Shown here: positions 25,338-48,060 of the stretch, piece by piece | Numbering within the stretch: position 1 is the first letter of the stretch | Layout of the letters: each line of letters begins with the position of its first letter | Source of the DNA: Thermoplasmata archaeon M9B1D | Lineage (GTDB): Archaea > Thermoplasmatota > E2 > DHVEG-1 | Length of the DNA: 55,446 nt | Assembly: GCA_002900535.1 (NCBI GenBank) | Contig: MUGC01000005.1 | Span: 1 to 55,446, forward strand | Direction: 5' to 3' | Position numbers and translations under genes: made by a program | The notes under the pieces: model-generated | Seen by the model: only the letters and a program-made list of their open reading frames with translations | Database searches by the model: none | Told to the model about the DNA's origin: nothing

Positions 25338-28123
25338 TCAAGACCAGTTTTAACATTTTTAGATTTTCCATAAGCATACTCAAGTTTTTGAGTTGGATCA
25401 AATAAATCAAAACCAGTTGCAACAACAATAGCACCAACATCAAGTTCAACGATTTCTTCTTTCATATCATGGCATATTGCTCCCGCTTCACAAGTATTAA
25501 CACACTCGTAACATTCTGAGCAGCCACCACAGTTAAGACAACGCCTCGCTTCTTCTATTGCTTCTTCTTCAGAATAACCCAACTCTACTTCTTTGAAATT
25601 TTTGATTCTTTCTTTAACTGGAAGATACCTCATTGGAACCATATGTTTCTTTCTCAAACCTTCAACCGAAGGTTTTGCAATTTCAGGTTTTTCTTCACGT
25701 CCTTCTCTTAAGTCTTTTCCGTTGATATATCTATCAATGCTATCTGCTGCTCTTTTCCCAGCACCAATTGCTTCAATAACAGTTCCAGCACCCCAAACCG
25801 CGTCACCACCACTAAAAACACCTTCGATGTTTGTTTCAAGAGTAACAGGATCAGAATGAATAGTATCCCATTTTGTTAATTTTAAATCATCAAATTCATT
25901 TTTTGGAAAAGCAACAGGAACAACCTTTTTAGAACTCCATCGAGTCATTTCTAAATCAATTTCTTTAGATAAAAAATCAGTATCTAATTCTTGTCCAATT
26001 GCGAGGATAATGCTGTCTGCTCTTATTTTAAATTCAGAATCGAGAATTGGCTTGACCTTTCGTCTTCCACTTGTATCTTTTTCATCAAGAAGTTGCATTC
26101 TGATACATTCAACCTCTTTAACATTACCGTTTTTATCACCGACTACCCTAGTTGGTGCAACAAGATATACAAGTTTAACTCCTTCTTTTTCTGTTTCATC
26201 GATTTCCCAATCTGGTTCTGCTGGCATTTCTTCACGAGTACGACGATATAAAATAGAAACATCATTTGCCCCTAAACGTATAGCAGAACGAGCGGCATCT
26301 AAAGCTGCATTACCACCACCGATGACTAATACTTTTTTACCTATTTTTGGAGATAAATCTCTAAAACCTGATAACTTAATTGCTTTAGATGGACAAACTG
26401 ATGCGCATTTTCCACAGCCTCTACAAAGATATTTCTTATAAATCTGAGGATTTTTTTTCTTTGGATTTTTCGTATCCGGTTTTGTTTTAATTACTCCGTA
26501 ATAACAAACTTCTTCACATTTTCCACATCCTATACAGAGATTTTCGTTAATCTCAACAAGAGACGACGTAATAACTCGACCTAGATTTATATCTTTTAAA
26601 AAATCTATAGCCTGAAAAACGCCATTTAAATCTTCACCAGGGATATTCATCTTTTTGCCTTTTTGAGCACCTATTGATAAGAAAACGGATTTAAATCCAC
26701 GATTAAACAAATCTTGCAGAGTAAAATCTTTACCAAGCGCTGTATTAAGATGAACCTGTACTCCAAGTGCTAAAATATCAGAAATCTCTCGCTCAAGAAT
26801 TTCTTTAGGAAGCCTGAATGCTGGAATTCCAAAACGCATCATTCCTCCAAGTACTGATGCTGCCTCAAAGATAGATACGTGATACCCTTTTAATGCTAAA
26901 TCATGAGCACAGGTAAGACCTGCAGGTCCTCCACCAACTATAGCTATTTTTTCTGCTCTTGTCTCAATTGGAGGAATCTCTATAGCTGGAATCTTTAGCT
27001 CTAAATCACCAACAAATCTTTTAATATGTGCAATTTGGATAGGATCATCAAGATCTTTACGAGTACAAGCTTCTTCACATGGTCTATGACATATGCGACC
27101 ACAAATTGATGGAAAAGGTAGACGTTCCTTAATAACCCTGAGAGCTTCATAGAATTTCCCACGACCTACAAGAGTAACATAACCAGGAGCACCAACGCCC
27201 GCGGGACATACATCTCTACAAGGGTGCTTACCACGTTTATCAATCGTAGCTTTAAGAGGTACCGCCTGTGGAAAAGGAGTATATATAGCATGTCTAGTAC
27301 CATAGCCCTCATCAAATTCATTTGGTAATTCAACAGGACAGCCATTAAAGCACTCACCACAGCCTGTACATTTCTCCATATCGACATATCTTGGCTTCTT
27401 TTTCACTTTAACTTTAAAGTTACCAACGTAACCCTCAACACTTTCAATTTCGGAATAAGTCAATAATTCAACATTACAATGACGAGCAACATCAACCATT
27501 TTAGGAGTTAAAATACAAGCAGAGCAATCCATAGTTGGAAAAGTCTTATCAAGCTGAGCCATATGACCACCAATGCTTGGTGATCGTTCAACAAGATAAG
27601 TTTTAAAACCCATATTACCTATATCAATTGCTGCTTGAATACCAGCAATACCACCACCAACAACCAGAGCAGCAGGTGTTACACCAACTGTCTTTTTTTC
27701 AAGTGGTTTTAAAAGACCTACTTTAAAAACAGCACTTTGAACAAGTGATTTTGCTTTTTCTGTTGCTTCTTCCTTATTTTTATGAACCCAACTACATTGC
27801 TCACGAATATTTACCATCTCAAGGCAATATTCATTTAAACCCATATCTTTGAGTACTTTTCTAAATGTTGGTTCATGCATACGAGGAGAGCAACTTGCTA
27901 CAACAACCCGATCAAGTTTTAACTCTTTTATATCTTTTTTAATGAGTTCTTGCCCTGGATCAGAGCACATATACTTGTAAAATCTACTAACAGCAACATA
28001 TGGTAGTCTTTTTACATGTTCTACAACTTTTTCAACATCAACTGTTGCCGCAATATTGATTCCACATTCACAAACATATGCTCCAATTCGCAAATCACTT
28101 GCCTCCCTTGCTTTTATGAGCAA
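25304..28123 (-). CDS. hdrA: 5' segment of an interrupted HdrA::NfnB/GltD-like fusion (HdrA N-domain and FAD core, nested GltD-like module carrying its own inserted ferredoxin)
   Basis: 939-aa ORF.
- IGAYVCECGINIA (HdrA N-domain), VVGGGIAGIQAA, DKTFPTMDCSAC, CTGCGECFNGCPV.
- The GltD-like module follows, aa ~299-860 (LPFPSICGRICHRPCEEAC, IAIVGGGPAGLTCA, VIGGGNAALDAARSAIRLGA..YRRTREEMPA), with an extra CIGCGKCEEVC..CRGCGKCASVCP insert.
- The sequence then reads CLNCGGCSECYECVNTCEAGAI.
- The likely true start is TTG 28093 (LRIGAY aligns with MKIGVY of the paralog), 8 nt after GGGAGG and 1 nt after the upstream stop. Confidence 0.8.
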   Translation of the reverse strand: MLIKAREASDLRIGAYVCECGINIAATVDVEKVVEHVKRLPYVAVSRFYKYMCSDPGQELIKKDIKELKLDRVVVASCSPRMHEPTFRKVLKDMGLNEYCLEMVNIREQCSWVHKNKEEATEKAKSLVQSAVFKVGLLKPLEKKTVGVTPAALVVGGGIAGIQAAIDIGNMGFKTYLVERSPSIGGHMAQLDKTFPTMDCSACILTPKMVDVARHCNVELLTYSEIESVEGYVGNFKVKVKKKPRYVDMEKCTGCGECFNGCPVELPNEFDEGYGTRHAIYTPFPQAVPLKATIDKRGKHPCRDVCPAGVGAPGYVTLVGRGKFYEALRVIKERLPFPSICGRICHRPCEEACTRKDLDDPIQIAHIKRFVGDLELKIPAIEIPPIETRAEKIAIVGGGPAGLTCAHDLALKGYHVSIFEAASVLGGMMRFGIPAFRLPKEILEREISDILALGVQVHLNTALGKDFTLQDLFNRGFKSVFLSIGAQKGKKMNIPGEDLNGVFQAIDFLKDINLGRVITSSLVEINENLCIGCGKCEEVCYYGVIKTKPDTKNPKKKNPQIYKKYLCRGCGKCASVCPSKAIKLSGFRDLSPKIGKKVLVIGGGNAALDAARSAIRLGANDVSILYRRTREEMPAEPDWEIDETEKEGVKLVYLVAPTRVVGDKNGNVKEVECIRMQLLDEKDTSGRRKVKPILDSEFKIRADSIILAIGQELDTDFLSKEIDLEMTRWSSKKVVPVAFPKNEFDDLKLTKWDTIHSDPVTLETNIEGVFSGGDAVWGAGTVIEAIGAGKRAADSIDRYINGKDLREGREEKPEIAKPSVEGLRKKHMVPMRYLPVKERIKNFKEVELGYSEEEAIEEARRCLNCGGCSECYECVNTCEAGAICHDMKEEIVELDVGAIVVATGFDLFDPTQKLEYAYGKSKNVKTGLEFVKKLYLFNV
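27860..27999. repeat. 140-nt tract 100% identical to 29774..29913 (5' parts of the tandem hdrA paralogs)
   Basis: Compared base by base by eye. It encodes YKYMCSDPGQELIKKDIKELKLDRVVVASCSPRMHEPTF in both genes. Confidence 0.85.
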
Positions 28124-29987
28124 CTATTCCATCTATTTGTGCGATAATTTGTTTAACAGCAAAATGTCTCATTGAAATCGCGCCAGACGGACACGTAGAT
28201 GCGCAAGAACCGCATCCTTTACACATAACTTCGTTTACTCGCATAACGCCTGCTTTTTCATCAAATTCAAGAGCAGAATAAGGACACATCCTTTCACAGA
28301 CTTTACATCCACTGCATAAATCTTCATTAATAGTAGATGTAATTGCTTCAACCTCAACTTTACCTTGTGCAAGCGGTTCAGATGCGCGAACTGCTGCACC
28401 ACTTGCTTGAGCAACAGCATCAGGAATATCCTTTGGCCCTTGGCAGCAGCCAGCAAGAAAGATTCCATCTGTAAATGTATCAACAGGTCTTAGCTTTGGA
28501 TGTGCCTCTAAAAAGAACCCATCACTACTTTGACTAATATTTAATACTCGTGAAAACTCTTTAGCATCTTCTTTTGGAACTAACCCTACTGCTAGAACTA
28601 CAAGGTCTGCCTCAATATCAGAATAACCCTTTGCCTTAACAACTGTTTTATCGGCATTCGTTACAACCTCGATTGGATCATCAAGTTCACGGCGGCGATA
28701 ATTAATATTTTCACCTTTAACACGGTTATAAAACTCTTCAAAGCCTTTTCCAAAAGCCCTGACATCCGTGTAATAAATTGTAAGATCTGCATCAGGGATT
28801 TTATCCCTGACCATATGAGCCTGCTTTGCTGTATACATACAACAAACACGACTACAGTACTCATTACCCTCTTTGTCACGGCTGCCTACACATTGAATAA
28901 ATACAACTTTTTTACCATTGAGTACATTTTCACATGTTCCGTAACCATACTTGGGTTTTGTAAGAGGATCAAAAATATCATAACCTGTAGCAACAACAAT
29001 AGTTCCAACATCGATTGTGATTATTTCTTCTTCTTGACTAAAATCTATTGCTTCACGGTCACATGCCTCTTTACATAAAGGATGATCTCCGCATTTCCCA
29101 CGTTTAACCATTAAACAATTATTTGGATCAATTGTATATTTCAAAGGAACTGCCTGAGGAAATGGGACATAAATTGCACTACGTTTGCTAAGTTTCATGT
29201 CAAACTCATTAGGAATTCTTCCATGAAGACGACATGATTCAGCACAAACCCCACATCCAACACATTTATCTATATCAACGTAACGTGGTTTCTTTTTAAT
29301 TTTTACTTTAAAGTTACCAATATAACCATCAATATTTTCAACTTCCGAATAAGAAAGCAATTCGATGTTTGGATGCCGAGCAACATCGACCATTTTAGGA
29401 GTCAAGATACAAGCAGAGCAATCCATAGTTGGAAAAGTCTTATCAAGCTGAGCCATATGACCGCCAATACTTGGAGATCGTTCAACAAGATAAGTTTTGA
29501 AACCTTTATCAGCAATCTCAAGTGATGCCTGAATACCGGCAATACCACCACCAATCACAAGAGCCTTTGGTATTACACTTACCTCTTTTTTCTCAAGGGG
29601 CTCAAGAAATTCAGCTCGGCAAACAGCACCAGTAATAAGTTCAATTGCTTTTTCAGTTGCTACATCCTTGTCTAAATGAACCCAACTACAATGCTCACGT
29701 ATATTTACCATTTCAAAAAAATAAGGGTTTAAACCTGCTTCTTCAACAGCGGCTCTAAATGTTGGTTCATGCATACGAGGAGAGCAACTTGCTACAACAA
29801 CCCGATCAAGTTTTAACTCTTTTATATCTTTTTTAATGAGTTCTTGCCCTGGATCAGAGCACATATACTTGTAAAATCTACTAACAGCAACATTTGGAAT
29901 TTTCTCAATTTCTTTTGCAACTTTTTCAACATCAACTGTTGCTGCGATGTTGATTCCACATTGGCAAGTATATACTCCGATCTTCAT
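28095..29987 (-). CDS. hdrA: HdrA (single-core, canonical domain order: N-domain, FAD core with inserted ferredoxin, C-terminal ferredoxin)
   Basis: 630 aa. Motifs KIGVYTCQCGINIA, VIGGGIAGIQAS, DKTFPTMDCSAC, CVGCGVCAESC, IQCVGSRDKEGNEYCSRVCCMY, CSGCKVCERMCP and CKGCGSCASTCP are present. It lacks ~26 residues present in the other in-window HdrA cores (see findings). Confidence 0.85.
   Translation of the reverse strand: MKIGVYTCQCGINIAATVDVEKVAKEIEKIPNVAVSRFYKYMCSDPGQELIKKDIKELKLDRVVVASCSPRMHEPTFRAAVEEAGLNPYFFEMVNIREHCSWVHLDKDVATEKAIELITGAVCRAEFLEPLEKKEVSVIPKALVIGGGIAGIQASLEIADKGFKTYLVERSPSIGGHMAQLDKTFPTMDCSACILTPKMVDVARHPNIELLSYSEVENIDGYIGNFKVKIKKKPRYVDIDKCVGCGVCAESCRLHGRIPNEFDMKLSKRSAIYVPFPQAVPLKYTIDPNNCLMVKRGKCGDHPLCKEACDREAIDFSQEEEIITIDVGTIVVATGYDIFDPLTKPKYGYGTCENVLNGKKVVFIQCVGSRDKEGNEYCSRVCCMYTAKQAHMVRDKIPDADLTIYYTDVRAFGKGFEEFYNRVKGENINYRRRELDDPIEVVTNADKTVVKAKGYSDIEADLVVLAVGLVPKEDAKEFSRVLNISQSSDGFFLEAHPKLRPVDTFTDGIFLAGCCQGPKDIPDAVAQASGAAVRASEPLAQGKVEVEAITSTINEDLCSGCKVCERMCPYSALEFDEKAGVMRVNEVMCKGCGSCASTCPSGAISMRHFAVKQIIAQIDGIVAHKSKGGK
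28771..28915. repeat. partner copy of 25189..25333
   Basis: Identical 145-nt string, offset 3582 nt. Confidence 0.85.
29774..29913. repeat. partner copy of 27860..27999
   Basis: Identical 140-nt string, offset 1914 nt. Confidence 0.85.
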
Positions 29988-29996
29988 ATTTATCCT

Positions 29997-30836
29997 TCAC
30001 ATTTCTCCTTTCAAATTCTTAAGTTGATCATATGAAAAAACTGGTCCGTCTTTACACACATAAAGATTTCCAATGTTGCAACGACCACATTTGCCTATTC
30101 CGCATTTCATTCTCATTTCAAGTGTTGTAAATATTTGGTCTTCAGAAAAACCAATCTTTAGTAAGTTTTGTATTACAAACTTAATCATAATAGGAGGTCC
30201 ACATGTAATTGCAATTGTATTTTTTGGAGAAGGTTTAATCTTAAGCAAATTATCTGGAACAAAACCGACAAACTTTTTCCAACCTTTTTCTTCTTTATCT
30301 ATTGAAAGGTGAACATTAACATCTTTTCTTTTTTCAAGTTCCTCGAACTCGGGTTTGAAACAAATATCATTTGTTGAACGTGCACCATAAATAACATCGA
30401 TTTTACCGTAATTTTTACGATTATCAACAACGTAGTTAATCAATGAGCGGAGTGGTGCCTGACCGATACCACCACCAATAAATACTAGATTTTTGCCCTC
30501 CCATCCTTTAACATCAAAATTGTTACCATAGGGACCTCGTACACCTAGAGTATCACCTATTTCACATTCATGTAACGCAGAGGTTACCTTACCAAGTTTC
30601 ATCACACTAACTTCAATGTATTCTTTTTTTGTAGGAGCCGAGGATATTGCAAAGAAACATTCACCAAAACCAAAATGTGAAACCATTATGCATTGACCTG
30701 GAAGATATGAAAAATTTTTTTTGATTTTGTCATCTTGAAATATTAAGCGGAGGGTTTTAATTGCCCTTTCGCCTGTATTTTCCTGAACGATTTTTTCAAT
30801 TTTTGCAAGCCATGGTTGATATGGATTTTCTGTTAT
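29997..30836 (-). CDS. FlxA/HydG/NfnA-family FAD/NAD(P)-binding [2Fe-2S] flavoprotein (extended N-terminus, apparent ATA start)
   Basis: The track ORF 29997..30686 starts mid-domain. The same frame is open 150 nt further upstream and encodes ITENPYQPWLAKIEKIVQENTGERAIKTLRLIFQDDKIKKNFSYLPGQCIM, homologous to the N-terminus of 17932..18762. The C-terminal MKCGIGKCGRCNIG..VCKDGPVF is present. Confidence 0.75.
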   Translation of the reverse strand: MTENPYQPWLAKIEKIVQENTGERAIKTLRLIFQDDKIKKNFSYLPGQCIMVSHFGFGECFFAISSAPTKKEYIEVSVMKLGKVTSALHECEIGDTLGVRGPYGNNFDVKGWEGKNLVFIGGGIGQAPLRSLINYVVDNRKNYGKIDVIYGARSTNDICFKPEFEELEKRKDVNVHLSIDKEEKGWKKFVGFVPDNLLKIKPSPKNTIAITCGPPIMIKFVIQNLLKIGFSEDQIFTTLEMRMKCGIGKCGRCNIGNLYVCKDGPVFSYDQLKNLKGEM

Positions 30837-31858
30837 GCTTTCACCTCTCTTGCTTGATCAATAATATCAATTATGTCAATGTTAACAGGACAATCATTAA
30901 TGCAACGACCACAACCAACACAAGCAATTATGTTATAGTTTTTAGGATAATAGTTAAACTTATGATACACACGGTTACGGGTTCTATTCATCCTCGCAGG
31001 TCGTGGATTATGACCTGAAGCATGTACAGTATATTCAGGGTTCATACATGTATCCCAAACACGAACACGGGCACCATCTGAAAGTGTTGTTTCATCCTGG
31101 ATGTCAAAGCAATGACACGTTGGACATTGATAAGTACATATTCCACAGCCTAAGCATTTCAATGAAATGTTTTTCCAAATAGGATCTTCAAATATTTTGT
31201 CAAGTTTTTCAACAATACCTTTTGTATTCATATTTCTTGTAATTGCTTTTTCTACTTTTTCGGAAATTTCCTGTTTTTTATTTTTATCTGAAGAAGAAGC
31301 TTTGGAAAACAAGTCTTTACTAGTTTTTACAACTTCGTTTCCTTTACTAGTTTTTATTTCGACATAATATTTATCACCAATATCTGTTAAAAGAATATCT
31401 ACATCCTCAGCAAATGCAGGTCCACCATTCATTGATGTACAGAAACAGTTAACGCCAGGTTTTATACAAGAAAGTCCAATAAGAACTGTATTTTCTCTTT
31501 TATTCATATAATACGGATCGACAAAATCGTCCTTAAACACAAAATCAACAATGGAAAAACTTTTTGCATCGCAAGGTCTAATTCCAAAAATCACATTTTT
31601 TGAATTTGGAAAATCAACAGATTTGACCTCTGCAGAAATACCTTGTTTAAATTTAAATAAAGTTTCAGTCTGGCAAAATAAAATAGATTTTGGTGACACC
31701 TTTGAATTTAAAAAATCAAGATTTATTTCTTTATAATCATTTATAGGTTTAAATAATGTAATATTATCACATTTTGTCGGTGCTAAAACTGTGTATCTTG
31801 ATTGAATTTTTTTAATTAGTTGAGGAAGTTTATTTTTTTCTAATGTTAACGTTTCCAT
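30833..31858 (-). CDS. FlxB/HydB/AsrA-family Fe-S protein
   Basis: 341 aa. It is a paralog of 16881..17930 (FGIRPCDAKS, CLGCGICTYQCPTCHC, CVGCGRCINDCP). Confidence 0.7.
   Translation of the reverse strand: METLTLEKNKLPQLIKKIQSRYTVLAPTKCDNITLFKPINDYKEINLDFLNSKVSPKSILFCQTETLFKFKQGISAEVKSVDFPNSKNVIFGIRPCDAKSFSIVDFVFKDDFVDPYYMNKRENTVLIGLSCIKPGVNCFCTSMNGGPAFAEDVDILLTDIGDKYYVEIKTSKGNEVVKTSKDLFSKASSSDKNKKQEISEKVEKAITRNMNTKGIVEKLDKIFEDPIWKNISLKCLGCGICTYQCPTCHCFDIQDETTLSDGARVRVWDTCMNPEYTVHASGHNPRPARMNRTRNRVYHKFNYYPKNYNIIACVGCGRCINDCPVNIDIIDIIDQAREVKA
30841..30847 (-). promoter_or_regulatory. Shine-Dalgarno GAGGTGA placed 4 nt upstream of ATA 30836..30834, which overlaps the upstream TAA as ATAA
   Basis: Reverse complement of 30833..30848: AGAGAGGTGAAAGCATAA. 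Confidence 0.5.
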
Positions 31859-31875
31859 ATTATTTTTTTCTCTCC

Positions 31876-32859
31876 CTAAAGTATGAATTCTTCTGGATCA
31901 TCCGGTTTAAACATAGATAAAAGTGGTTTTACATCAACATCTAGACCTGCTCTGTAGTCAAACAACTCAAGTACTTCTTTTTCTAGCTTTTTATTTAATT
32001 TAACTAAAGGAATCTCAGCGGGACATACTCTTTCACATTCACCGCAGTCAATACAACGACCAGCAAGATGAAAAGCTCGCATAATATTCCAAGCAGTGTT
32101 TTCTGAAACATTCACCGACCTGCGAATCCATTGAGGATTAAGTTGATCTACCATACATTCTTTACAATAGCACATAGGACAAACATTACGACAAGCATAA
32201 CAACGAATACATTTTTCAAACTGTTTTTCCCAGTATTCCCATTTTTCTTTTAAAGATTTTTTTTCAAAAGATTCAACGTCTTTATAATTGGGTTTACCGG
32301 TAGTTTTAATTTCAGACCCTACCAGTACATCATAAATAATCGGGTTAGGAAACTGGCATTGTTTGCATTTATCCATTAATAATTCTTCTTTTGGAACTTT
32401 GTGAGTTTTCCCGTCTATTTTAATTACAAAGTTATTTGCATCTTCATCGATATCTACAGTTTTTGTCTGATTTGGAAATTTTTTATTTATCTTTTTAGGA
32501 TCAATAACACCCGTGCAAGGAATCCCGATTATAACCACATCATCGCGATTCAAACCTTTTTCTTGGATGATTTGAACTATAGCCCGAGAATCACATCCTT
32601 TAACAATAACGCCAACTTTACGTTTATCTTCCTCTGCTCCTTTTCGCAAAGGTAGTTTTTCTTGAAGCATTAGAAAAACAGTAAGATTATGAACACATAA
32701 AGGATTGAAAATTAATCTTTCTACATCATCGGAGGATGTTATAAACAAAGGTGTAACCTGGAATCCATGTGTTCCTTTTTCCCAGCCGATTACGTATTTT
32801 ACATCATCGCGGTTTATGATTTTTTCTGTGCTTTCTCTAAGTTTTTTAAGGTCTACCAA
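31876..32859 (-). CDS. Fe-S oxidoreductase subunit, FlxC-like (2x[4Fe-4S])
   Basis: 327 aa. Motifs VKGCDSRAIV..IIGIPCTG, CIRCYACRNVCPMCYCKEC and CIDCGECERVCP are present. The call follows from its position between the MvhD-like and FlxB-like genes. Confidence 0.5.
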   Translation of the reverse strand: MVDLKKLRESTEKIINRDDVKYVIGWEKGTHGFQVTPLFITSSDDVERLIFNPLCVHNLTVFLMLQEKLPLRKGAEEDKRKVGVIVKGCDSRAIVQIIQEKGLNRDDVVIIGIPCTGVIDPKKINKKFPNQTKTVDIDEDANNFVIKIDGKTHKVPKEELLMDKCKQCQFPNPIIYDVLVGSEIKTTGKPNYKDVESFEKKSLKEKWEYWEKQFEKCIRCYACRNVCPMCYCKECMVDQLNPQWIRRSVNVSENTAWNIMRAFHLAGRCIDCGECERVCPAEIPLVKLNKKLEKEVLELFDYRAGLDVDVKPLLSMFKPDDPEEFIL

Positions 32860-33293
32860 GAATTCGACCTCCTTATCTGATGCGTTGGACCAAGTTTACG
32901 AATATCATCTGTTACTTCTCTGATTACATCTGCAAATTTTTTACCTTCTGCTGCTGACACCCAGGTCATACGAACTCTTCGTTCATCTATCCCTAGATAT
33001 TCAAGTAATTTTTTTAAAACAGCAATACGACGACGGGCAAAATAATTACCTTGAATATAATGACAATCACCCGGGTGACATCCACCTATTAATACCCCAT
33101 CAGCTCCCTCATGTAGAGCATTTACTATAAACATAGGGTTAACACGACCAGAACACATAACACGTATTATTTTCACATTTGGTGGATACTCTATTCTACT
33201 GGTACCTGCTAAATCAGCTCCAGCATAAGAGCACCAATTACATAAAAAAGCTACAATATTAGGCTCAAAACTATCTTTTGACATATGCTTCAA
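32853..33293 (-). CDS. mvhD: MvhD/FlxD-type [2Fe-2S] adaptor protein (copy 2)
   Basis: 146 aa. Motifs FLCNWCSYAGADLAGTSR, VMCSGRV and GGCHPGDCHY are present. It is close to 35677..36096 in sequence. Confidence 0.8.
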   Translation of the reverse strand: MKHMSKDSFEPNIVAFLCNWCSYAGADLAGTSRIEYPPNVKIIRVMCSGRVNPMFIVNALHEGADGVLIGGCHPGDCHYIQGNYFARRRIAVLKKLLEYLGIDERRVRMTWVSAAEGKKFADVIREVTDDIRKLGPTHQIRRSNSW

Positions 33294-34239
33294 TTGGTCC
33301 CATGTTTTCTAATTCTTTGACAAATTTATTAATCTCTTGTTGTAATTTTGCTGATTCACCTGTTGAAAACCAATCAAGTTTTAAACGTTTAGGATTAATA
33401 TTTAATTCTTTTAAAATATTTTTAAGAAGAATAAGTCTTCTGCGGGTTTTATAATTTCCATCATGGTCACATTCTTCAGGTGGACAACCAGCTACCATAA
33501 CACCCCATGCACCTGATTCAAATGCATCAAGAATTAATTCAGGGGCAACACGACCGGAGCACATTGTAACAATTATACCATATGGTGTTTTAACAAGTGT
33601 TTCTGTTTCACTTAGTTGCATACCAGGAAAAATCGAATAATTGCAAGCAAACACGAGTAATTTTTTATCATCTTTTTTCAAAATTTCTTTCACGCTTTCA
33701 TGAAGTTCAGGTAACGTTACATTACATCCTTCTTTTTGAGAAATAGCACCAGAAGGGCAAGCTGCAAGACAGAGCCCACAGCCGCGACATTCAACCTTGT
33801 CTACTTCGATTTTCTTTTTGTCTTTTCCTTTATCAACTATTTTGAGTGCATCATACTTACATAGAGGTACGCATACACCACAGACACTACATAGATCTTC
33901 ATCAATTTGAACAATAGTGCCTTGAACTTCAAAACCTGCATTGATTAAATCAGCACGTGCATCGGTTAAGATATCTGTTACTGGTACTCCAGCAGAACAA
34001 TTATCGCTACAGTTTTTACAATAAAAACATTGAAAGATTTTATCAACAACTTCCTGTGTAGGTGCTATCTTTCCAGTAATCATTCCGTGAACCATTAAAA
34101 GTTTTCCACGAGGGGTATCTGATTCCCAGCTGTAAGATTTAAATAAAGGACAAAGTTCATAACAATATCCACAACGAATGCATTTATCAAGCTCATTTTC
34201 CCATTTTTTTGAGCGTTTAAAATCGACTTTTTTGACCAT
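33271..34239 (-). CDS. fusion protein: GlcF/HdrC-type N-terminal 2x[4Fe-4S] domain, ferredoxin domain and degenerate MvhD-like domain
   Basis: 322 aa.
- CIRCGYCYELCP..TPRGK..CFYCKNCSDNC (GlcF/HdrD-type N-domain).
- CSVCGVCVPLC..CRGCGLCLAACP (ferredoxin).
- FACNYSIFPG..TMCSGRV..AGCPPEECDHDGN (MvhD-like, with CNWC degraded to CNYS). Confidence 0.65.
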   Translation of the reverse strand: MVKKVDFKRSKKWENELDKCIRCGYCYELCPLFKSYSWESDTPRGKLLMVHGMITGKIAPTQEVVDKIFQCFYCKNCSDNCSAGVPVTDILTDARADLINAGFEVQGTIVQIDEDLCSVCGVCVPLCKYDALKIVDKGKDKKKIEVDKVECRGCGLCLAACPSGAISQKEGCNVTLPELHESVKEILKKDDKKLLVFACNYSIFPGMQLSETETLVKTPYGIIVTMCSGRVAPELILDAFESGAWGVMVAGCPPEECDHDGNYKTRRRLILLKNILKELNINPKRLKLDWFSTGESAKLQQEINKFVKELENMGPIEAYVKR

Positions 34240-34241
34240 GA

Positions 34242-35675
34242 TTACTTTACCACCCTATATCGTAAATCTGTTGCTTTCACCCAGTCATCTGGAGCATCCA
34301 TGAGTTTATGTGGATTTAAAATATTATTTGGATCAAGTGCTTTTTTAATAGCACGCATCATAGGAATTATATCTGCTCTTGCTTTTTTCCAAGGAGGCGC
34401 CTTAGATAAGCCAATTCCATGCTCAGCAGACGTTACACCGCCAACTGAATGAATATAATCATAAAGTTCTTCTATTACCTTATCAGCATCCTTCCATTGA
34501 TCCTTCTTTTTTGGATCAAGCATAATCTTTGTATGAATTACTCCAGATCCACAATGACCATAAACTGCCATAATTACATTATTTCGTTTAGCTATTTCAT
34601 GGATTTTTGCAGCTGCTTCAGCAATTTTTGAATTTGGAACACCCATGTCATCTGCAAGGTCGGTACAGATGATTCCCTCTTTATATCTAGAAAGCGCGGC
34701 AAAAAGTTTTTTTCTTCCACTAAAGATACGTTTTCTTTCCTCTGCATCGTAGCTAAGTTCTATTCCGAAACCATTATGTGCTTTACAGATTTCTTTCATT
34801 TTATTAATTTCAAAATCAACTGCTTCTTTCACATTACCATCTGCTTCAAATAAGATAATTGCTCCAACCTCTTTCAATCCAAGATCTAATGCCTTATTAA
34901 CAGCAACAATTCCAATTCCATCCATCAGCTCAAGCATAGAAGGCTGACACCCGCTAGTGATAATTTCTGATATAGCATTTCCTGCGTCTTCCAATTTATT
35001 AAAATTTGCAACACCTAGACAACGAAATTTTGGAAGCGGATAAATTCTTATAGTTGCCTCAACAACAATACCAAGAGTACCCTCGGAACCAACGATAAGG
35101 CGTTCAAGCTGATAACCCGAAGAATGAACACGGGTATTTGCACCAAGGTTAACTAGGCTGCCATCTGCAAGTACAACTTTTAAACCTAAAATATAGTCGC
35201 GAGTGGCACCATATTTCACAGATCTAACACCTGAAGCATTAGCTGCAATCTCACCACCAATTGTGGCAATTCTACTAGATGCTGGTGCTGGCGGATAAAA
35301 AAAACCATATGGCAAAAGCGCACGATTTAAATCATCATCAACAACACCAGGTTCCACCCGAACAAGTACATCTCCAGGTTTTATCTCAAGAATATGATTC
35401 ATTTGTTTCATATCCATGACAATTCCACCGTCGATAGGGACTGCATGGCCACTGGTACCAGTACCTGCACCACGTGGAATAACAGGAATCCTGTTTTTAT
35501 TTGCATATCTCATAATTTTTTGAACTTGTTCAATTGTTTTTGGACGAACTACAACATTAGGCATTGCTTGATGAACTGATGCATCTCCAGAATATGCATA
35601 TAAATCCACGGGGTTGTCAGTTGCATTTTCAGATCCAACGATTTTTTTAAGGTTTTCAACATCAACTTTTTTCAT
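34242..35675 (-). CDS. glcD: FAD-linked oxidase, GlcD/D-lactate dehydrogenase family
   Basis: 477 aa. It has a PCMH-type FAD-binding N-domain (VVRP.T.EQV..I..A....IPV.PRGAGTG.SG) and a C-terminal FAD-oxidase domain (SAEHGIG). Confidence 0.8.
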   Translation of the reverse strand: MKKVDVENLKKIVGSENATDNPVDLYAYSGDASVHQAMPNVVVRPKTIEQVQKIMRYANKNRIPVIPRGAGTGTSGHAVPIDGGIVMDMKQMNHILEIKPGDVLVRVEPGVVDDDLNRALLPYGFFYPPAPASSRIATIGGEIAANASGVRSVKYGATRDYILGLKVVLADGSLVNLGANTRVHSSGYQLERLIVGSEGTLGIVVEATIRIYPLPKFRCLGVANFNKLEDAGNAISEIITSGCQPSMLELMDGIGIVAVNKALDLGLKEVGAIILFEADGNVKEAVDFEINKMKEICKAHNGFGIELSYDAEERKRIFSGRKKLFAALSRYKEGIICTDLADDMGVPNSKIAEAAAKIHEIAKRNNVIMAVYGHCGSGVIHTKIMLDPKKKDQWKDADKVIEELYDYIHSVGGVTSAEHGIGLSKAPPWKKARADIIPMMRAIKKALDPNNILNPHKLMDAPDDWVKATDLRYRVVK

Positions 35676-35676
35676 A

Positions 35677-36096
35677 TTATGCGATCTCCTTCAGAGGTGT
35701 TGGTCCCAATTTTTTTAATTGATTTACAAAATCAGTTACTACTTGTGCAAACTTTTGTCCCTCTGAAGCAGACACATATTCAAATCGTACTCGCTCAGGT
35801 TCTACACCCATATCATTAAGAAATTTTTTCAAAAGCCTAATCCTTCGATTAGTTTTGTAGTTTCCAGATTGGTAATGGCAATCACCAGGGTGACAACCAG
35901 CAATGAGAACACCATCAGCACCCTTTCGAAGTGCTTCAAGGATAAAAACCGTGTCAACCCGACCGGAGCACATTACTCTTATGGATTTGATATTTGGTGG
36001 ATATTTTATCCTACTAGTACCTGCTAAATCAGCTCCAGCATATGAGCACCAGTTACATAGAAAACCAATAATGTTTGGTTCAAATTCTTTTGCCAT
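35677..36096 (-). CDS. mvhD: methyl-viologen-reducing hydrogenase delta subunit
   Basis: 139 aa. Motifs FLCNWCSYAGADLAGTSR, VMCSGRVD and AGCHPGDCHY are present. Confidence 0.85.
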   Translation of the reverse strand: MAKEFEPNIIGFLCNWCSYAGADLAGTSRIKYPPNIKSIRVMCSGRVDTVFILEALRKGADGVLIAGCHPGDCHYQSGNYKTNRRIRLLKKFLNDMGVEPERVRFEYVSASEGQKFAQVVTDFVNQLKKLGPTPLKEIA

Positions 36097-36108: not shown

Positions 36109-36582
36109 TCAAATATCTAATTTTATCTTTTTTATCTCATTAAGTGTTAATTCTACGGCATTTGGAACAGCCGCAGCAATATCTTTGCTTAGTTTTTCCC
36201 TAAACTCACAAGGGATTTCTTTCATCATTATTCCAATGATTATGATATCTTTAGGAATTCTGGTTTCTCCCATTTTTTTTGCCATTTCAATGGCTTCTAT
36301 CAGCGATACATCATGTGGGTTGCATGAATGCATCGTGTTGAAATCGCTAAGAGGAATTCTTTTTACTTCCCCGTTTTCTGCATCTTTTGATTTTACTGCA
36401 TCAATGATTATCGCTCTATCGTATCCTATTATTAGATCTAACAGGTTCATACCACCTGTTATTGCTTCGTCAAGTGTTACATCTGGGTCATTGATTTGTT
36501 TTTTCAGCTCGTTTACTACGTGTATTCCTACACCATCATCGCCAAGAATGAGATTTCCCACTCCCAGTACGATGGTTTTCAT
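36109..36582 (-). CDS. [NiFe] hydrogenase maturation endopeptidase (HycI/FrhD/HyaD family)
   Basis: 157 aa. It has the N-terminal VLGVGNLILGDDGVGIHV motif plus later D and H ligands. Confidence 0.8.
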   Translation of the reverse strand: MKTIVLGVGNLILGDDGVGIHVVNELKKQINDPDVTLDEAITGGMNLLDLIIGYDRAIIIDAVKSKDAENGEVKRIPLSDFNTMHSCNPHDVSLIEAIEMAKKMGETRIPKDIIIIGIMMKEIPCEFREKLSKDIAAAVPNAVELTLNEIKKIKLDI

Positions 36583-36595
36583 AGATATTTTTCCT

Positions 36596-37987
36596 CTACA
36601 AATTTTGTCTTAGTGTTTTGTATAATTTTTTGTTATGGTCAAATATTTTTACCTCTAGTGGCATACCACCAGGTAATGTATGTGTTGCACATGCAAAACA
36701 TGGGTCATATGCGCGAAATGCCATTTCTACCATGTTTAGTGTTTTGTTGCTGACATCTCCTTTTTTAATTACCCCTTTTGCTGCGTCTCTTACACTCATA
36801 TTTATTGCACCAGCATTGTTTGTTGTTGCAACAATAAGATTTGCTTTGTCAATAAGTCCATCTTTTGTTAGTTTATAGTGATGAATTAATGTTCCTCTTG
36901 CTGCTTCTGTTACGCCCATTCCTTCACCTGGTTCACCTACAGGGTTTCTGATTTTTTGGCTGGTGATTTCAGGGTCATTTACCAGTTCTTTTGCTCTTTC
37001 AGTTGCATATAAAAGTTCGATGAGTCTAGCCCAGTGAAATGCAAGAGTACTGTTGACTGCTTTCCCACCTAGAGTTTCATACATTCTTTTGTATTCTTTA
37101 TCTGCGAGTGGTGTTGCCATACCTTCTGCTGCATTAAGTCTTCCTAGTGGTCCTACACGATATATCCCACTGTCTTTTCCATCTTTGAATCCTTTCCAAC
37201 CTACAGATTTTAGATAAGTGAATTTTATATATGTCCATTCCTCAACGTGTTCTGCTATATGTTTATAATAGTCTTTTACATCAAATTTTAACTTTTCTTT
37301 TCCTTGCTGGTCAGTTACTCTAATTTTTCCGTCATAAAAGTTCACCTTGTTATTTTTGTCAACAAGCCCCATGTTATATGTTGCAAGTTGATATGGGTCA
37401 CTTAGAATCAAGTTAACATAGTCTTTATTTTTAAGCACTATATCATCAAATAGTTTGAGTGAAAATTGTGCAAATTTGATACATGAGTCAACCATTGTTT
37501 TTATATCTTTTACTTCATCTTTGTTTAAACCTTTTGAAACACCGCCAGGTAAACCACACACAGGATGTGTTGCCTTACCGCCAAGAATTGCTGTAATTTT
37601 TTGACCGTATGCTCTGTGTTTTATTACTTCTTTTCCGATTTCCACTCCTGCTTTTTCAATTACACCTATTACATTTCGTTTTGCTGGTGGTGCATCAGGA
37701 CCAACAACAAAATCAGGCCCCCCAAGATAATAGAAATGTAATATATGATCATAGATATAGTAACCCACATACATTAATTCACGAAGTTTTTTAGCAGCAC
37801 TAGTTGGCTCTACATTGAACGCTGCATCAAGGGCTTTTGTTGATGCAAAATGATGAGCAACAGGAAAACCACGAAGTTCAGGAATCTGTAAATATGCGTT
37901 TTCAACATCGCCTTTGTCGTCCAAAAATATACTTATTTTTCCATGACCTTCAAGACGGGTTATCGGGTCTATTGTAACTGTTCTCAT
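36596..37987 (-). CDS. mvhA: MvhA-like [NiFe] hydrogenase large subunit (group 3c context) lacking the N-terminal RxCGxC motif
   Basis: 463 aa. It has the N-terminal ITRLEGHGKISIFLDD and the C-terminal DPCFACATH plus a cleavable tail. After ELRGF the sequence jumps straight to PVAHH, so there is no CxxC. Confidence 0.8.
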   Translation of the reverse strand: MRTVTIDPITRLEGHGKISIFLDDKGDVENAYLQIPELRGFPVAHHFASTKALDAAFNVEPTSAAKKLRELMYVGYYIYDHILHFYYLGGPDFVVGPDAPPAKRNVIGVIEKAGVEIGKEVIKHRAYGQKITAILGGKATHPVCGLPGGVSKGLNKDEVKDIKTMVDSCIKFAQFSLKLFDDIVLKNKDYVNLILSDPYQLATYNMGLVDKNNKVNFYDGKIRVTDQQGKEKLKFDVKDYYKHIAEHVEEWTYIKFTYLKSVGWKGFKDGKDSGIYRVGPLGRLNAAEGMATPLADKEYKRMYETLGGKAVNSTLAFHWARLIELLYATERAKELVNDPEITSQKIRNPVGEPGEGMGVTEAARGTLIHHYKLTKDGLIDKANLIVATTNNAGAINMSVRDAAKGVIKKGDVSNKTLNMVEMAFRAYDPCFACATHTLPGGMPLEVKIFDHNKKLYKTLRQNL

Positions 37988-38988
37988 TTTTTCATCACTC
38001 TCCTGTTTATAAGAGCAGAGGGCAGACCATATTTGTAAAACGTCCCAATAGGATCTACAACTTGATCTATCAATTTTTGTACTTCTTCATCACTCATTTT
38101 TTCTTCACCCTCTATACCGAGAATACTAGCAAGTGCAGATATCATCTTAGCACCTTGATCAAGCGAGTTGGGTGTTGGCCCTCCACAACCAGTACATGGC
38201 ATATTTGCATCTAAACATCGTGCACTACATCCACCACGGGTTGCTGGACCAAGGCAAATAATACCTTGTTCAAGAAGGCATTTTTCTTCTATTTTATCTA
38301 CTTCATATACTCTTTTTATCTCCTTGATTTTTTTCTCGGTTTTTTCAAATCTGCATTCATCACATACAGATTTCATTGGGCCAATAATTGATCCTTTTGG
38401 TGGTAGTTTATTTTCAACAATTGCACCTACAGCAGTCATAATTTGATCGGGTGTAGGTGGACAACCAGGTAGATAATAATCAACATCAACTGTTTGATCC
38501 AATGTTTTTACAGTATCATAAAACTCTGGAAGTGTAAGAGTACCCTCCTTTACTTTAACAGATGTTTTTGGAACAATTTTTTTAGGATTATCAGTCGATG
38601 GATTATCTAAATAAGCAACTCTAAAGACTTCCTCACGGTTTGCAACATTTGCAAGACCAGGTATCCCACCGTTAACTGCACATGCCCCAAATGCCACCAT
38701 AAATTTGGATTTCTTACGCAATAGTTTTGCGATATGTTCTTGTTCTTCAGTTCTTATTGACCCATTGAAGAAACAAACATCTATTTGTTTATCCTTCATT
38801 GCTTCTACATCTTTGTACTTGAAATCCATTGCAACTGGCCAGAATAAAATATCTGCAATGCCAATTACATCTAGTATTTTTTCATCGATATCAAGTACAG
38901 CGATTTCACATCCGCCACAACTTGCGGCCCAATAAAAAGCAAGTTGCAGTTTCTTTTTTGCTTCACTTTTCTTTTTTTCTTTTGTCAT
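37984..38988 (-). CDS. mvhG: MvhG-like [NiFe] hydrogenase small subunit
   Basis: 334 aa. It has WAASCGGCEIAVLD and multiple distal Cys motifs (CDEC, CLGPATRGGC, CTGCGGP). Confidence 0.8.
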   Translation of the reverse strand: MTKEKKKSEAKKKLQLAFYWAASCGGCEIAVLDIDEKILDVIGIADILFWPVAMDFKYKDVEAMKDKQIDVCFFNGSIRTEEQEHIAKLLRKKSKFMVAFGACAVNGGIPGLANVANREEVFRVAYLDNPSTDNPKKIVPKTSVKVKEGTLTLPEFYDTVKTLDQTVDVDYYLPGCPPTPDQIMTAVGAIVENKLPPKGSIIGPMKSVCDECRFEKTEKKIKEIKRVYEVDKIEEKCLLEQGIICLGPATRGGCSARCLDANMPCTGCGGPTPNSLDQGAKMISALASILGIEGEEKMSDEEVQKLIDQVVDPIGTFYKYGLPSALINRRVMKK

Positions 38989-39010
38989 ATACTACCACCT
39001 TTTTCAAATC

Positions 39011-39892
39011 TTATTTTCTATAAACTCCCTTTTTTTTCAATAATAAATTAGGATCAACAGCATGTTGTTCAAATCCACATACTGTTGGATCAAGCCCTAG
39101 TGCAATTGCGATTAGCTGGGTGTAATAATAAACAGGTATTTGTTTGTATCCCCTATGTAGTTTTTCTGCTTCTTTTCCACGTACATCAATGTTGAACCTA
39201 CAAAGCGGGCAAGACAAAACAATAGCATCAGCCCCGCGTTCAAGGGCAAAGTTTGTAATTCTATGAGCACGGTTTGAAACAATTTCCTTATGCTCAACAG
39301 TATGATAAGAACCACAGCATTCAATATTAAATGGATTGTCAACTATATCTGCACCAAGGACCTTTAAAAGATCAGAGAGAATTTGTGGATCTTCTGCATC
39401 ATCAATTGCGACTTCTCTTGGACGAAGCATCATACAACCATAATATGGCATTATTTTCATTCCGCGAAGTGGATTTTTAACCATTTTTTTAAGAGTTTTA
39501 AATCCTACTTCGTCACGTAAAAACTCAAGGAAATGATAAACTGTAACCGTACCCTTGTAATCGTTTTCCTGGTCCATAAACGCATTCAATGTCTCAAGAT
39601 CATCTGCCTTTTCTTTAACACGAAGATTGGTTTGTTTTAGTGTATTGCAACACATATCGCAAAGTGTTAAAACTTTATCTTCACCCTGATCTTCAACATG
39701 AATAAGGCTACGCAGAGGTGCCAAGTGTCGCATTAAATCATCATCTGATAAGGATGACACAACACCGCAACAGGTCCAGTCATCCATTTCAACCATCTCA
39801 TGGCCTAACTTTTCCATTATTGCAAAAGCTGTTTTTTCCAAATTTTTTGCAGATGTCTTAAGTGTACAACCTGGGAAATATAACATTTTCAT
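39011..39892 (-). CDS. hdrB: heterodisulfide reductase subunit B (two CCG domains), copy 2
   Basis: 293 aa. Motifs PGC..TCCG..CDMC and YGC..ECCG..CPLC are present. Confidence 0.85.
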   Translation of the reverse strand: MKMLYFPGCTLKTSAKNLEKTAFAIMEKLGHEMVEMDDWTCCGVVSSLSDDDLMRHLAPLRSLIHVEDQGEDKVLTLCDMCCNTLKQTNLRVKEKADDLETLNAFMDQENDYKGTVTVYHFLEFLRDEVGFKTLKKMVKNPLRGMKIMPYYGCMMLRPREVAIDDAEDPQILSDLLKVLGADIVDNPFNIECCGSYHTVEHKEIVSNRAHRITNFALERGADAIVLSCPLCRFNIDVRGKEAEKLHRGYKQIPVYYYTQLIAIALGLDPTVCGFEQHAVDPNLLLKKKGVYRK

Positions 39893-39897
39893 AGTTA

Positions 39898-40326
39898 TCA
39901 GCCTATGTTTTTTCTAAATAAACTTACAAACGCAATCTGAGGAATTGCCTCTCTTTCCTTTTTTGAGGTTTTTTGAGCATAACTATGATCAATTTTTCTT
40001 CGCAAGATTATTTGACGAAGTGCTTCCATGATTTTTGTGATGTTAATGTCGCGAGGACATCTTTCAGCACAAGTAAAACATGCAGAGCAAAGCCATATGG
40101 TCTTTGAACTCAACACTTCCTGTCGATCAAGAACAACATAACGTATAACTTCATCAGGTGTTAAATCCATATCATCAACATAAGGACAACCCGCAGAACA
40201 TGTTCCACACTGATAACAGCCAAATAAGTTTTCACCACAGATATCTTCAACTTCTTTTACAAGCTCGCCTTTTTTAAAAACAATTTTGCTGATTTCTTTG
40301 TTTTTTGGGAGTTGTTTTCTAGCCAT
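39898..40326 (-). CDS. hdrC: heterodisulfide reductase subunit C, copy 2
   Basis: 142 aa. Motifs CYQCGTCSAGCP and CSACFTCAERCP are present. Confidence 0.8.
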   Translation of the reverse strand: MARKQLPKNKEISKIVFKKGELVKEVEDICGENLFGCYQCGTCSAGCPYVDDMDLTPDEVIRYVVLDRQEVLSSKTIWLCSACFTCAERCPRDINITKIMEALRQIILRRKIDHSYAQKTSKKEREAIPQIAFVSLFRKNIG

Positions 40327-40328
40327 AT

Positions 40329-48058: not shown

Positions 48059-48060
48059 AA

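Follow-up and report, generated by a model that had tools for sequence, protein, structure and literature searches.

The GlcD-Fus locus among described systems

GlcD-type flavoproteins are known from the glycolate oxidase GlcDEF and from enzymes of the HdrD/GlcD type, in which they are accompanied by an iron-sulfur (Fe-S) subunit with an N-terminal 2x[4Fe-4S] domain. This subunit carries two CCG domains, where the non-cubane clusters reside and where thiol/disulfide or quinone chemistry takes place, and the D-lactate dehydrogenase of Desulfovibrio has a CCG Fe-S subunit as well. HdrD/GlcD pairs have been proposed in Bathyarchaeia, Methanomethylicia, and Korarchaeia (PMC10667645). A dehydrogenase of the same family, which binds flavin adenine dinucleotide (FAD), is also found in the Ldh-EtfAB complex of Acetobacterium woodii (LctBCD, PDB 7qh2), in which a flavin-based bifurcating module has a hydroxyacid/oxoacid couple of about −190 mV for its high-potential partner. 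Here we describe a related but different gene pair in Thermoplasmata archaeon M9B1D. The DNA analyzed (contig MUGC01000005.1, 55,446 nucleotides (nt), referred to as the window) encodes a GlcD-like protein of 477 amino acids (aa), GlcD477, next to a 322-aa protein, Fus, that starts like GlcF and ends in a domain resembling the adaptor protein MvhD. We propose that the two would form the subunits of a soluble FAD/Fe-S D-2-hydroxyacid dehydrogenase.

The likeness of Fus to GlcF and HdrD is restricted to the N-terminal domain. Fus lacks the two CCG domains and contains ferredoxin and MvhD-type [2Fe-2S] domains instead. In comparison with Ldh-EtfAB, the flavoprotein would be partnered by an Fe-S protein that has five clusters and ends in an MvhD-type domain, and the bifurcating flavoprotein is presumed to be HdrA. 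In addition, the substrate pocket has a Lys at a position where LctD has a Tyr, and the accompanying racemase homologue LarA belongs to group 4, whereas LarA of group 1 often stands alongside Ldh-EtfAB in a published gene-context table.

The MvhD-like end of Fus relates the locus to systems built on HdrA. MvhAGD-HdrABC, FdhAB-MvhD-HdrABC, and Elp-Hdr of methanogens (5odc, 7bkb, and 8rvu) have an MvhD-fold [2Fe-2S] adaptor between the input enzyme and HdrA, and the operon of the window encodes canonical copies of all these parts. In contrast to the methanogen complexes, a hydroxyacid dehydrogenase would here act as the input enzyme, the electron wire and the MvhD domain form one fused protein, this domain lacks two characteristic residues, Cys16 and His68, and the redox couple is too positive for a bifurcation donor. 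HdrA2 of Methanosarcina, a type Ia HdrA with a fused MvhD, has a C-terminal ferredoxin and MvhD part that is co-linear with most of Fus. This ferredoxin plus MvhD end of HdrA2 corresponds to a portion of the "mobile arm" that Hdr complexes possess (PMC13580544). In FlxABCD-HdrABC of Desulfovibrio vulgaris, an NAD(P)H module docks on HdrA via the MvhD-like FlxD, much as suggested by the gene order mvhD-flxC/B/A-like-hdrA downstream of Fus. However, the Desulfovibrio system includes no hydroxyacid dehydrogenase, whereas the Flx-like module of the window shares its operon with the Mvh hydrogenase and GlcD-Fus.

The host is an uncultured sediment archaeon of the marine benthic group D (MBG-D) type, the closest named proteins are those of "Thermoplasmatales archaeon SG8-52", and the genome is 76% complete. 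The features of the gene pair are as follows:

34242..35675, minus strand: glcD-like gene for an FAD-dependent D-2-hydroxyacid dehydrogenase (477 aa; FAD_binding_4 and FAD-oxidase_C)
33271..34239, minus strand: Fus (322 aa), Fe-S electron-transfer subunit with four [4Fe-4S] clusters and one [2Fe-2S] cluster predicted from Pfam, NCBIfam, conserved Cys, AlphaFold2, and Foldseek
33985..34194, minus strand: Fus residues 16-85, GlcF/HdrC-type 2x[4Fe-4S] domain (Fer4_17 3e-12, Fer4_8 1e-10)
33739..33912, minus strand: Fus residues 110-167, 2x[4Fe-4S] ferredoxin domain, a homologue of the ferredoxin domain at the C-terminus of HdrA (Fer4_7 2.5e-15)
33298..33657, minus strand: Fus residues 195-314, MvhD-like [2Fe-2S] domain of the variant CN[WY]S...GCP..EC[DE]H (PF02662 4.3e-34)

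Domain architecture of Fus and family of GlcD477

A first-pass annotation of the window had described the 322-aa protein as a GlcF/HdrD-type double-cluster domain followed by a ferredoxin and an MvhD-like domain, with no CCG domains, and this description holds in each part. The motifs that it quoted for the N-terminus are present and, in addition to the Fer4 matches listed above, this region aligns to residues 14-99 of GlcF (NCBIfam, 1.4e-14). The CCG domain (PF02754) had no Pfam match in Fus. The C-terminal domain reached 117.6 bits with PF02662 (gathering cut-off 22.3), and the predicted fold gave the same result. In a Foldseek search with an AlphaFold2 model of Fus, which was built from 39 homologues (predicted local distance difference test, pLDDT, 85.4), the first matches were the solved MvhD chains 5odh_D, 5odc_D, and 8rvu_F (probability 1.0, TM-target 0.78-0.83), followed by the ferredoxin end of HdrA. 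Thus, sequence and fold both identify the C-terminal domain as MvhD/FlpD, and the first outcome that the annotation had named as refuting, a failure of this domain to score as MvhD/FlpD, did not occur; the score with the VhuD equivalog was 54.9 bits (cut-off 215). The ferredoxin part matches residues 524-636 of HdrA (5odc_A), and residues 99-317 of Fus are co-linear with the last 216 positions (560-775 of 777) of the HdrA2 model NF040770 (5e-50). However, the score of 170 bits compares with a cut-off of 1100 for this model, and its thioredoxin-reductase-like FAD core is unmatched. By domain content, Fus is a member of neither GlcF, as it has no CCG domains, nor HdrA2, as it has no flavin core.

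Across the 39 homologues, 20 Cys residues of Fus are conserved, 19 of which are invariant, whereas Cys252 is present in at least 90% of the rows. Eight are located in the GlcF-type domain, eight in the ferredoxin domain, and four in the MvhD-type domain. The first-pass annotation had also noticed that one Cys of the CNWC motif of MvhD is lost, and the motif indeed reads CNYS in the window. The lost residue corresponds to Cys16 of MvhD, which has been described by cryo-electron microscopy (cryo-EM) as an additional conserved Cys outside of the cluster (PMC13580544). By elimination, therefore, the predicted ligands of the [2Fe-2S] cluster are Cys199, Cys227, Cys252, and Cys257, all of which are retained in Fus. 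The cluster site is thus predicted to be intact, and it could be ruled out that the loss of the CNWC Cys disables the cluster, because the lost Cys is not a ligand.

The cryo-EM work also placed His68 and Asp71 of MvhD at a bound ligand of unknown identity, and Cys16 together with His68 at or near the path from the [2Fe-2S] of MvhD to the HdrA flavin, on the side facing HdrA (PMC13580544). At these positions, the Fus family has Ser instead of Cys16 (33 of 35), Pro instead of His68 (35 of 35), and Glu or Asp at Asp71. Because the ligands are intact and the HdrA-facing residues are altered throughout the family in a conserved manner, the C-terminal domain is, judged from these alignments, a distinct subtype of MvhD and not a product of decay. 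The possibility that Fus as a whole is an assembly chimera or a decayed gene was also ruled out: the same architecture recurs in more than 400 protein clusters, with invariant cluster ligands throughout.

GlcD477 matches FAD_binding_4 (Pfam, 2.1e-44) and FAD-oxidase_C (1.7e-53), and is encoded by the sole gene of the genome with an FAD-oxidase_C domain. The closest solved structure is LctD (7qh2_C, 2.5e-77), followed by 9qgz and mouse LDHD. With subsite A of mouse LDHD (R347, H398, H405, E442, and H443) as the reference, GlcD477 retains the carboxylate-binding Arg (R321), a His/His/Glu metal site, and the catalytic His; R321 and the motifs GHCGSGVIH and AEHGIG are found in 58 of 58 family rows. 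The scores are below the equivalog cut-off of TIGR00387 (388 versus 567.9 bits) and the cut-off of PRK11230 (283.9 versus 897 bits). Going by these motifs and scores, GlcD477 is a member of the D-2-hydroxyacid dehydrogenase family (VAO/PCMH type, including GlcD, LctD, LDHD, and D2HGDH), and not a GlcD equivalog.

The remainder of the pocket is more distinctive. The hydrophobic subsite B of mouse LDHD (V101, W351, S365, and I407) is not matched by GlcD477, which has Phe at W351 and Lys at I407. This Lys is part of an HTK motif, two residues past the second metal-binding His, and is invariant in all four GlcD clades as well as in the clade with a CCG partner. At this position, LctD has a Tyr, mouse LDHD has Ile407 in its hydrophobic pocket, and human D2HGDH has Asn443 in a carboxylate-binding pocket. 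Two further Lys directly follow the carboxylate-binding Arg in GlcD477 (RKK).

The probable GlcD-Fus partnership and its gene neighborhood

A scan of metagenomes with a Fus-specific alignment yielded 80 loci, and in about 70 of these, as well as in the genome loci, glcD is located directly upstream of Fus. The Fus tree contains three deep clades. The MBG-D clade includes about 25 loci with the whole hdr-mvh-mvhD-glcD-Fus-mvhD-flx-hdrA string. Clade C (49-53% identity) includes about 20 loci with the order glcD-Fus-larA, mostly followed by hdrC-hdrB, and clade D (36-41% identity, including the Acidobacteria genome L004) includes about 25 loci with the order glcD-Fus-larA, nine of which continue with metV-metF. 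The GlcD tree recovers the same three lineages, and the only Fus copies without glcD in the tree belong to a derived paralogue nested within the MBG-D clade. As read from these trees, adjacency to glcD is ancestral for the fused Fus family, and it persists in contexts without any hdr or mvh gene. The first-pass annotation had given the gene order as mvhD, glcD-like gene, 322-aa protein, and mvhD, and had suggested a synteny survey. All four open reading frames (ORFs) are present at the positions given, on the minus strand, and the order recurs in the closed same-genus genome CP070836 and in about 25 further metagenome and genome loci, L003 among them, so that it is not due to chance.

In sister genera, mvhD-glcD is followed, at the same operon position, by a 371-aa Fe-S protein with CCG domains of the canonical GlcF/HdrD type. 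The GlcDs of these genera are 63-65% identical to GlcD477, and the GlcDs that precede the CCG-type and the Fus-type partners are orthologous, with at least 61% identity. The N-termini of Fus from three closed relatives are 53-57% identical to the N-terminus of a GlcF-like CCG protein encoded in a related MBG-D genome. On one MBG-D contig (L145, 2105-7454), both types of partner occur in tandem in the order mvhD-glcD-fumA-fumB-glcF(CCG)-Fus-mvhD; the GlcF-like protein and Fus of this contig share 60% identity in their first 103 residues, beyond which no relationship remains. Given the shared N-terminal domain and the same operon slot, the earlier statement that the fusion stands in place of a CCG-domain partner has literally been borne out. 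The swap of partners inside a single archaeal family, where both types also co-exist in tandem, is a new observation of this study, as are the identification of the lost Cys as Cys16 together with the change of His68 to Pro, the ancestral adjacency to glcD, and the fumarase genes within the module of a close relative.

Apart from the Fus N-terminus, no other GlcF-type CCG protein was found in three closed Fus-bearing genomes, and all CCG matches in the genome of the window are located in three HdrB-type ORFs. A CCG partner of GlcD encoded elsewhere was rejected for the closed same-genus genome, in which no GlcF-like protein is present; the genome of the window, being incomplete, may still encode such a partner. 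Taken together, the recurrent adjacency, the matching trees, the swap of CCG and Fus partners after orthologous GlcDs, and the L145 tandem make a partnership of GlcD and Fus highly probable.

In an alternative arrangement, GlcD477 would pair with EtfAB, as in LctBCD, and Fus would serve the Hdr/Mvh complex as an accessory Fe-S subunit, unrelated to GlcD. EtfAB is encoded on another contig of the genome, the nearest solved GlcD structure is LctD, and Fus-type proteins also occur in hdr/mvh clusters without glcD. However, the etfAB genes adjoin genes for an acyl-CoA dehydrogenase and an acyl-CoA synthetase and not glcD, the adjacency of glcD and Fus is ancestral and survives where hdr and mvh genes are missing, and the two proteins fall into the same three lineages. 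We regard EtfAB as an unlikely partner of GlcD477, and this arrangement as a whole as highly improbable.

Several Fus relatives that lack a neighboring glcD were observed. Two bacterial contigs (L005, 9998-10953; L078, 9998-10956) encode the Fus homologue in two separate genes, one for a GlcF-type plus ferredoxin part of 186-188 aa and one for an MvhD of about 131 aa of the CNWS subtype, within hdrA/mvhDGA clusters. In Chloroflexi, fused Fus-like proteins are encoded between mvhD and mvhG. On a further contig (L148, 7409-16416), an MBG-D paralogue of Fus follows a gene for a NikR-like regulator; downstream, on the same strand, are mvhD, a split hdrA, genes for an Fe-S protein and an FrhB-like protein, and a second mvhD.

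In the window, the pair belongs to one uninterrupted minus-strand string that runs from 43544 to 25304. The order is hdrA (1071 aa), hdrC, hdrB, mvhG, mvhA, hycI, mvhD (139 aa), glcD-like (477 aa), Fus (322 aa), mvhD (146 aa), flxC-like, flxB-like, flxA-like, hdrA (630 aa), and hdrA::gltD (939 aa). The first mvhD and glcD are separated by 1 nt and glcD and Fus by 2 nt, Fus and the second mvhD overlap by 23 nt, and the latter overlaps the next gene by 7 nt. The features outside of the pair are as follows:

36109..43544, minus strand: hdrA (1071 aa), hdrC, hdrB, mvhG, mvhA, and hycI, the upstream part of the string (order kept in L001, L003, and about 20 metagenome loci)
35677..36096, minus strand: mvhD (139 aa), canonical MvhD (PF02662 7.4e-58 over the full length; CNWC with Cys16 and GCHPGDCH with His68 and Asp71 kept in the alignment)
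32853..33293, minus strand: mvhD (146 aa), canonical MvhD/FlxD, first gene of the flxC-flxB-flxA-like NAD(P)H module (PF02662 3.7e-58 over the full length)
29997..32859, minus strand: flxC-like (327 aa; FrhB_FdhB_C and Fer4), flxB/AsrA-like (341 aa; Fer4_22, with ShyB 4e-71), and flxA/HydG-like (229 aa as called; NAD_binding_1 and DHODB_Fe-S_bind) genes, the NAD(P)H-side module
25304..29987, minus strand: hdrA (630 aa) and hdrA::gltD fusion (939 aa), candidate docking partners (ORF and domain calls)
46412..48825, minus strand: genes for an FrdA-like flavoprotein (548 aa) and an Fe-S protein (254 aa), orthologues of L164 genes (54% and 50% identity)
623..1882, plus strand: LarA homologue of LarAH group 4 (Lar_N 3.7e-58), 31 kb from glcD

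The 139-aa MvhD, which is encoded after mvhG-mvhA-hycI, is probably a component of the Mvh hydrogenase. The loci of relatives share the order mvhD-flxCBA-hdrA. The assembly of the window has local defects, whereas Fus and GlcD are backed by many independent assemblies. In mvhA (36596-37987, minus strand), 23 residues (ERFSxGRRAEDMPQITSRICGVC) are missing in comparison with two close relatives of 486 aa, and the gap takes in the N-terminal nickel-binding CxxC. The flxA/HydG-like gene (29997-30836, minus strand) encodes 229 aa as called versus 279 aa of the orthologue in a closed relative, and the 147-nt "gap" upstream of it probably encodes the absent N-terminus without a standard start codon. 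A full-length serpin gene is also present in the window (52288-53589, minus strand, PF00079 5e-120).

Some gene contexts link GlcD-Fus with additional pathways. The window contains a cluster of lplA, hdrC, hdrB, a giant hdrA::gltD, and gcvH (5483-12837, minus strand), which is detached from the module. In sister genera, lplA-hdrC-hdrB-hdrA::gltD is located immediately downstream of glcD-glcF(CCG) (for example, L121, 8478-13305), and this adjacency suggests that the lipoyl-protein-linked Hdr may belong to the same functional unit. In clade D, the pair metV-metF, which encodes methylene-tetrahydrofolate reductase, follows glcD-Fus-larA in L004 (10933-13790) and in eight more loci (L179-L181, L185, L188, L202, and L203 among these). 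This arrangement hints that hydroxyacid oxidation is coupled to the Wood-Ljungdahl pathway at its methyl branch. In the Acidobacteria genome (G001:C27:19406-19774), an MvhD lies beside a 1530-aa HdrA-like frame and has one in-frame TGA in the matched stretch, which could specify selenocysteine or mark a gene boundary.

Probable substrate, possible docking on HdrA, and direction of electron flow

The first-pass annotation had proposed that GlcD oxidizes D-lactate or glycolate and that the LarA-family gene of the window supplies it as a racemase. That gene is real, and the link to GlcD was strengthened, because glcD-Fus-larA adjacency was found in about 40 loci of other lineages and the LarAs there have the same signature residues. 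The three signature motifs of the window LarA, EPHYFAGYTGGRKS, YQSQKAL, and LGYHKAAKM, are those of the clade C LarAs encoded directly after glcD-Fus, and the clade D LarAs show only conservative changes, all outside of the signature residues. In contrast, the assignment to lactate could not be upheld. The window LarA is 52-57% identical to members of group 04 (WS0140 57%, LarAH4 52%), and the three motifs are identical to those of group 4, whose signature comprises 20 positions of the sequence logo (D R H H Y F K H V Y Q Q K G H K A K M E/Q). LarAH group 4 has been labelled "putative malate racemases" (Desguin et al., 2020). Its tabulated neighbors are a COG0247 Fe-S oxidoreductase, a COG0277 FAD dehydrogenase, and the MvhD of COG1908, whereas group 1, the true lactate racemases, was tabulated with COG0277 and EtfAB (Desguin et al., 2020, Table S1). 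Two residues are common to the window LarA and the malate racemase Mar2: a Gln that precedes the catalytic Lys, and a Lys located on helix 14.

The genes around the module also point toward malate. Both fumarase subunits are encoded between glcD and glcF/Fus in L145, and the order in clade C is transcarboxylase genes, glcD, Fus, larA, fumA, hdrC, hdrB, Fe-S, frdA, and fumB. The FrdA-like and Fe-S genes of the window (46412-48825) are orthologous to genes of L164 (11241-15011) that follow glcD-Fus-larA-fumA-hdrC-hdrB there, which suggests that a soluble fumarate reductase with HdrBC-like subunits works alongside the module. A class I fumarase was found in five of five genomes (that of the window and four closed relatives), in two of them 3-4 kb from the LarA gene, and no Ldh_1-type malate or lactate dehydrogenase was found in any of the five. 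Additional genes in the window encode a 2-oxoacid:ferredoxin oxidoreductase, directly upstream of hdrA, a succinyl-CoA synthetase, a malic enzyme, and a phosphoenolpyruvate carboxykinase.

The original proposal can be formulated as a D-lactate (or glycolate) dehydrogenase fed by a lactate racemase, with the electrons from lactate entering HdrA for confurcation with reduced ferredoxin from the neighboring 2-oxoacid:ferredoxin oxidoreductase. It would fit the position of that gene, the finding of no Ldh_1-type lactate dehydrogenase in the genome, and the match of GlcD477 to LctD of the lactate-confurcating Ldh-EtfAB. However, LarA belongs to group 4 and not to the EtfAB-associated group 1 and has the Gln and Lys of Mar2, the GlcD pocket contains an invariant Lys at a position occupied by Tyr in LctD and by Ile in mouse LDHD, and the recurrent neighbors are genes for fumarase, fumarate reductase, and transcarboxylase. 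We consider this proposal improbable.

Because of the group 4 LarA, the invariant pocket Lys, and the fumarase and fumarate reductase genes in or beside the module, D-malate/oxaloacetate appears to be a likelier couple than D-lactate/pyruvate. Some observations nevertheless weigh against malate. The closest solved homologue of GlcD477 is a lactate enzyme, and the LarA loop HYF/GGRK is nearer to that of lactate racemase (HFF/GGRK) than to that of Mar2 (HYK/GGHK). LarAH4, the sole group 4 member assayed, was inactive after refolding on all substrates tried. The gene larC (PF01969), required for nickel insertion into the LarA cofactor, was not found in the genome of the window or in four closed MBG-D genomes. 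The group 4 LarA homologue is kept in the MBG-D genomes G000, G089, G055, G056, and G094 (four of them single-contig), larC was found in none of them, and it is present in the module-bearing Acidobacteria genome. On balance, a malate-type substrate is mildly favored by these sequence comparisons, lactate is considerably less likely, and a substrate other than these two is a little less likely still.

The following mechanism would combine these features. D-malate, which would be converted to oxaloacetate, is the first-choice substrate and D-lactate the second. The group 4 LarA homologue would interconvert the L- and D-forms, with fumarase supplying L-malate. The electrons would pass from the FAD of GlcD477 via the GlcF-type clusters and the ferredoxin-type clusters to the MvhD-type [2Fe-2S] cluster of Fus, a path that is suggested by homology and by the conservation of all ligands. 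The MvhD-type end of Fus may plug into an HdrA flavoprotein of the same operon, and two further units, the Mvh hydrogenase and the NAD(P)H module of the Flx type, may dock on the same machinery via their own MvhD proteins. Docking of Fus is plausible because the operon is conserved in about 25 MBG-D loci, because Fus-type proteins reside in hdr/mvh clusters without glcD, and because Fus is co-linear with HdrA2.

Four points tell against this mechanism. The module lacks a neighboring hdrA in clades C and D, where it stands beside fumarate-reductase-like genes or metVF, so that HdrA is not an obligatory neighbor. The MvhD-like domain of Fus lacks Cys16 and His68, which face HdrA. In solved complexes, canonical MvhD carries the middle-potential donors and not the high-potential leg. 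Moreover, EtfAB is encoded elsewhere in the genome. Attachment of Fus to HdrA remains a tentative proposal, for which the arguments are nearly balanced but fall slightly short.

The first two of these points would also agree with a self-contained GlcD-Fus enzyme that does not dock on HdrA and passes its electrons to a soluble partner encoded nearby, such as MetVF, a carrier of the ferredoxin type, or an enzyme resembling fumarate reductase; its operon position would then reflect co-regulation only. Where frdA-like genes adjoin the module in these clades, hdrBC-like genes accompany them, and in the window the pair of frdA-like and Fe-S genes is located on the same strand, about 10 kb away. On the other hand, in about 25 MBG-D loci the GlcD-Fus pair is enclosed by mvhD on one side and mvhD-flxCBA-hdrA on the other, in a tight array of genes that overlap or abut, Fus-type proteins are encoded next to hdrA and mvhD even where glcD is missing, and the one clade D genome examined encodes HdrA and MvhD elsewhere. 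We rate a self-contained enzyme as rather unlikely. A soluble D-malate-type dehydrogenase plugged into HdrA is our preferred overall explanation, by a modest preference.

The redox potentials restrict the direction of electron flow. At about −170 mV for oxaloacetate/malate and about −190 mV for pyruvate/lactate, both couples are far above ferredoxin, H2, and NAD(P)H. Therefore, either couple could only be a high-potential partner and not a bifurcation donor for ferredoxin. Two modes could be envisaged. In the first, reduction of the oxoacid would pull the reduction of ferredoxin by H2 or NAD(P)H. In the second, the hydroxyacid and reduced ferredoxin would together yield H2 or NAD(P)H, in an HdrA-based counterpart of Ldh-EtfAB. 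The first mode would make GlcD-Fus the high-potential arm of a new HdrA-based flavin bifurcation, in which reduction of oxaloacetate or pyruvate to the D-hydroxyacid replaces heterodisulfide reduction and pulls the reduction of ferredoxin by H2 (Mvh) or NAD(P)H (Flx); we regard this role as speculative and rather doubtful.

A search of the full-text literature found no paper or biochemical study describing an enzyme of GlcD and an Fe-S::MvhD protein. The nearest literature is the HdrD/GlcD proposals, and the gene association is visible only in the supplementary table of Desguin et al. (2020). Nevertheless, the module is widespread, with representatives in MBG-D archaea, in one Acidobacteria genome, and on many metagenome contigs, and it always joins one GlcD clade to one and the same Fe-S partner, in most cases along with a group 4 LarA homologue.

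Clusters of the Hdr/Mvh type are common in non-methanogenic anaerobes, and the GlcD-Fus module offers a candidate for the high-potential electron acceptor there: a 2-oxoacid/2-hydroxyacid couple wired by a five-cluster protein that ends in a putative HdrA-docking adaptor domain. If the bifurcation reading is true, it would explain the role of Hdr/Mvh in at least some non-methanogens without CoM-S-S-CoB, and why malate is handled via a racemase and a D-specific flavoenzyme and not by an ordinary malate dehydrogenase. If Fus does not bind HdrA, it would still be a new type of subunit for a known enzyme family. Characterization of the module would assign functions to three large uncharacterized protein groups, might add a new class of flavin-based electron bifurcation, and might account for a D-malate route that runs through a racemase in the C4 branch of central metabolism.

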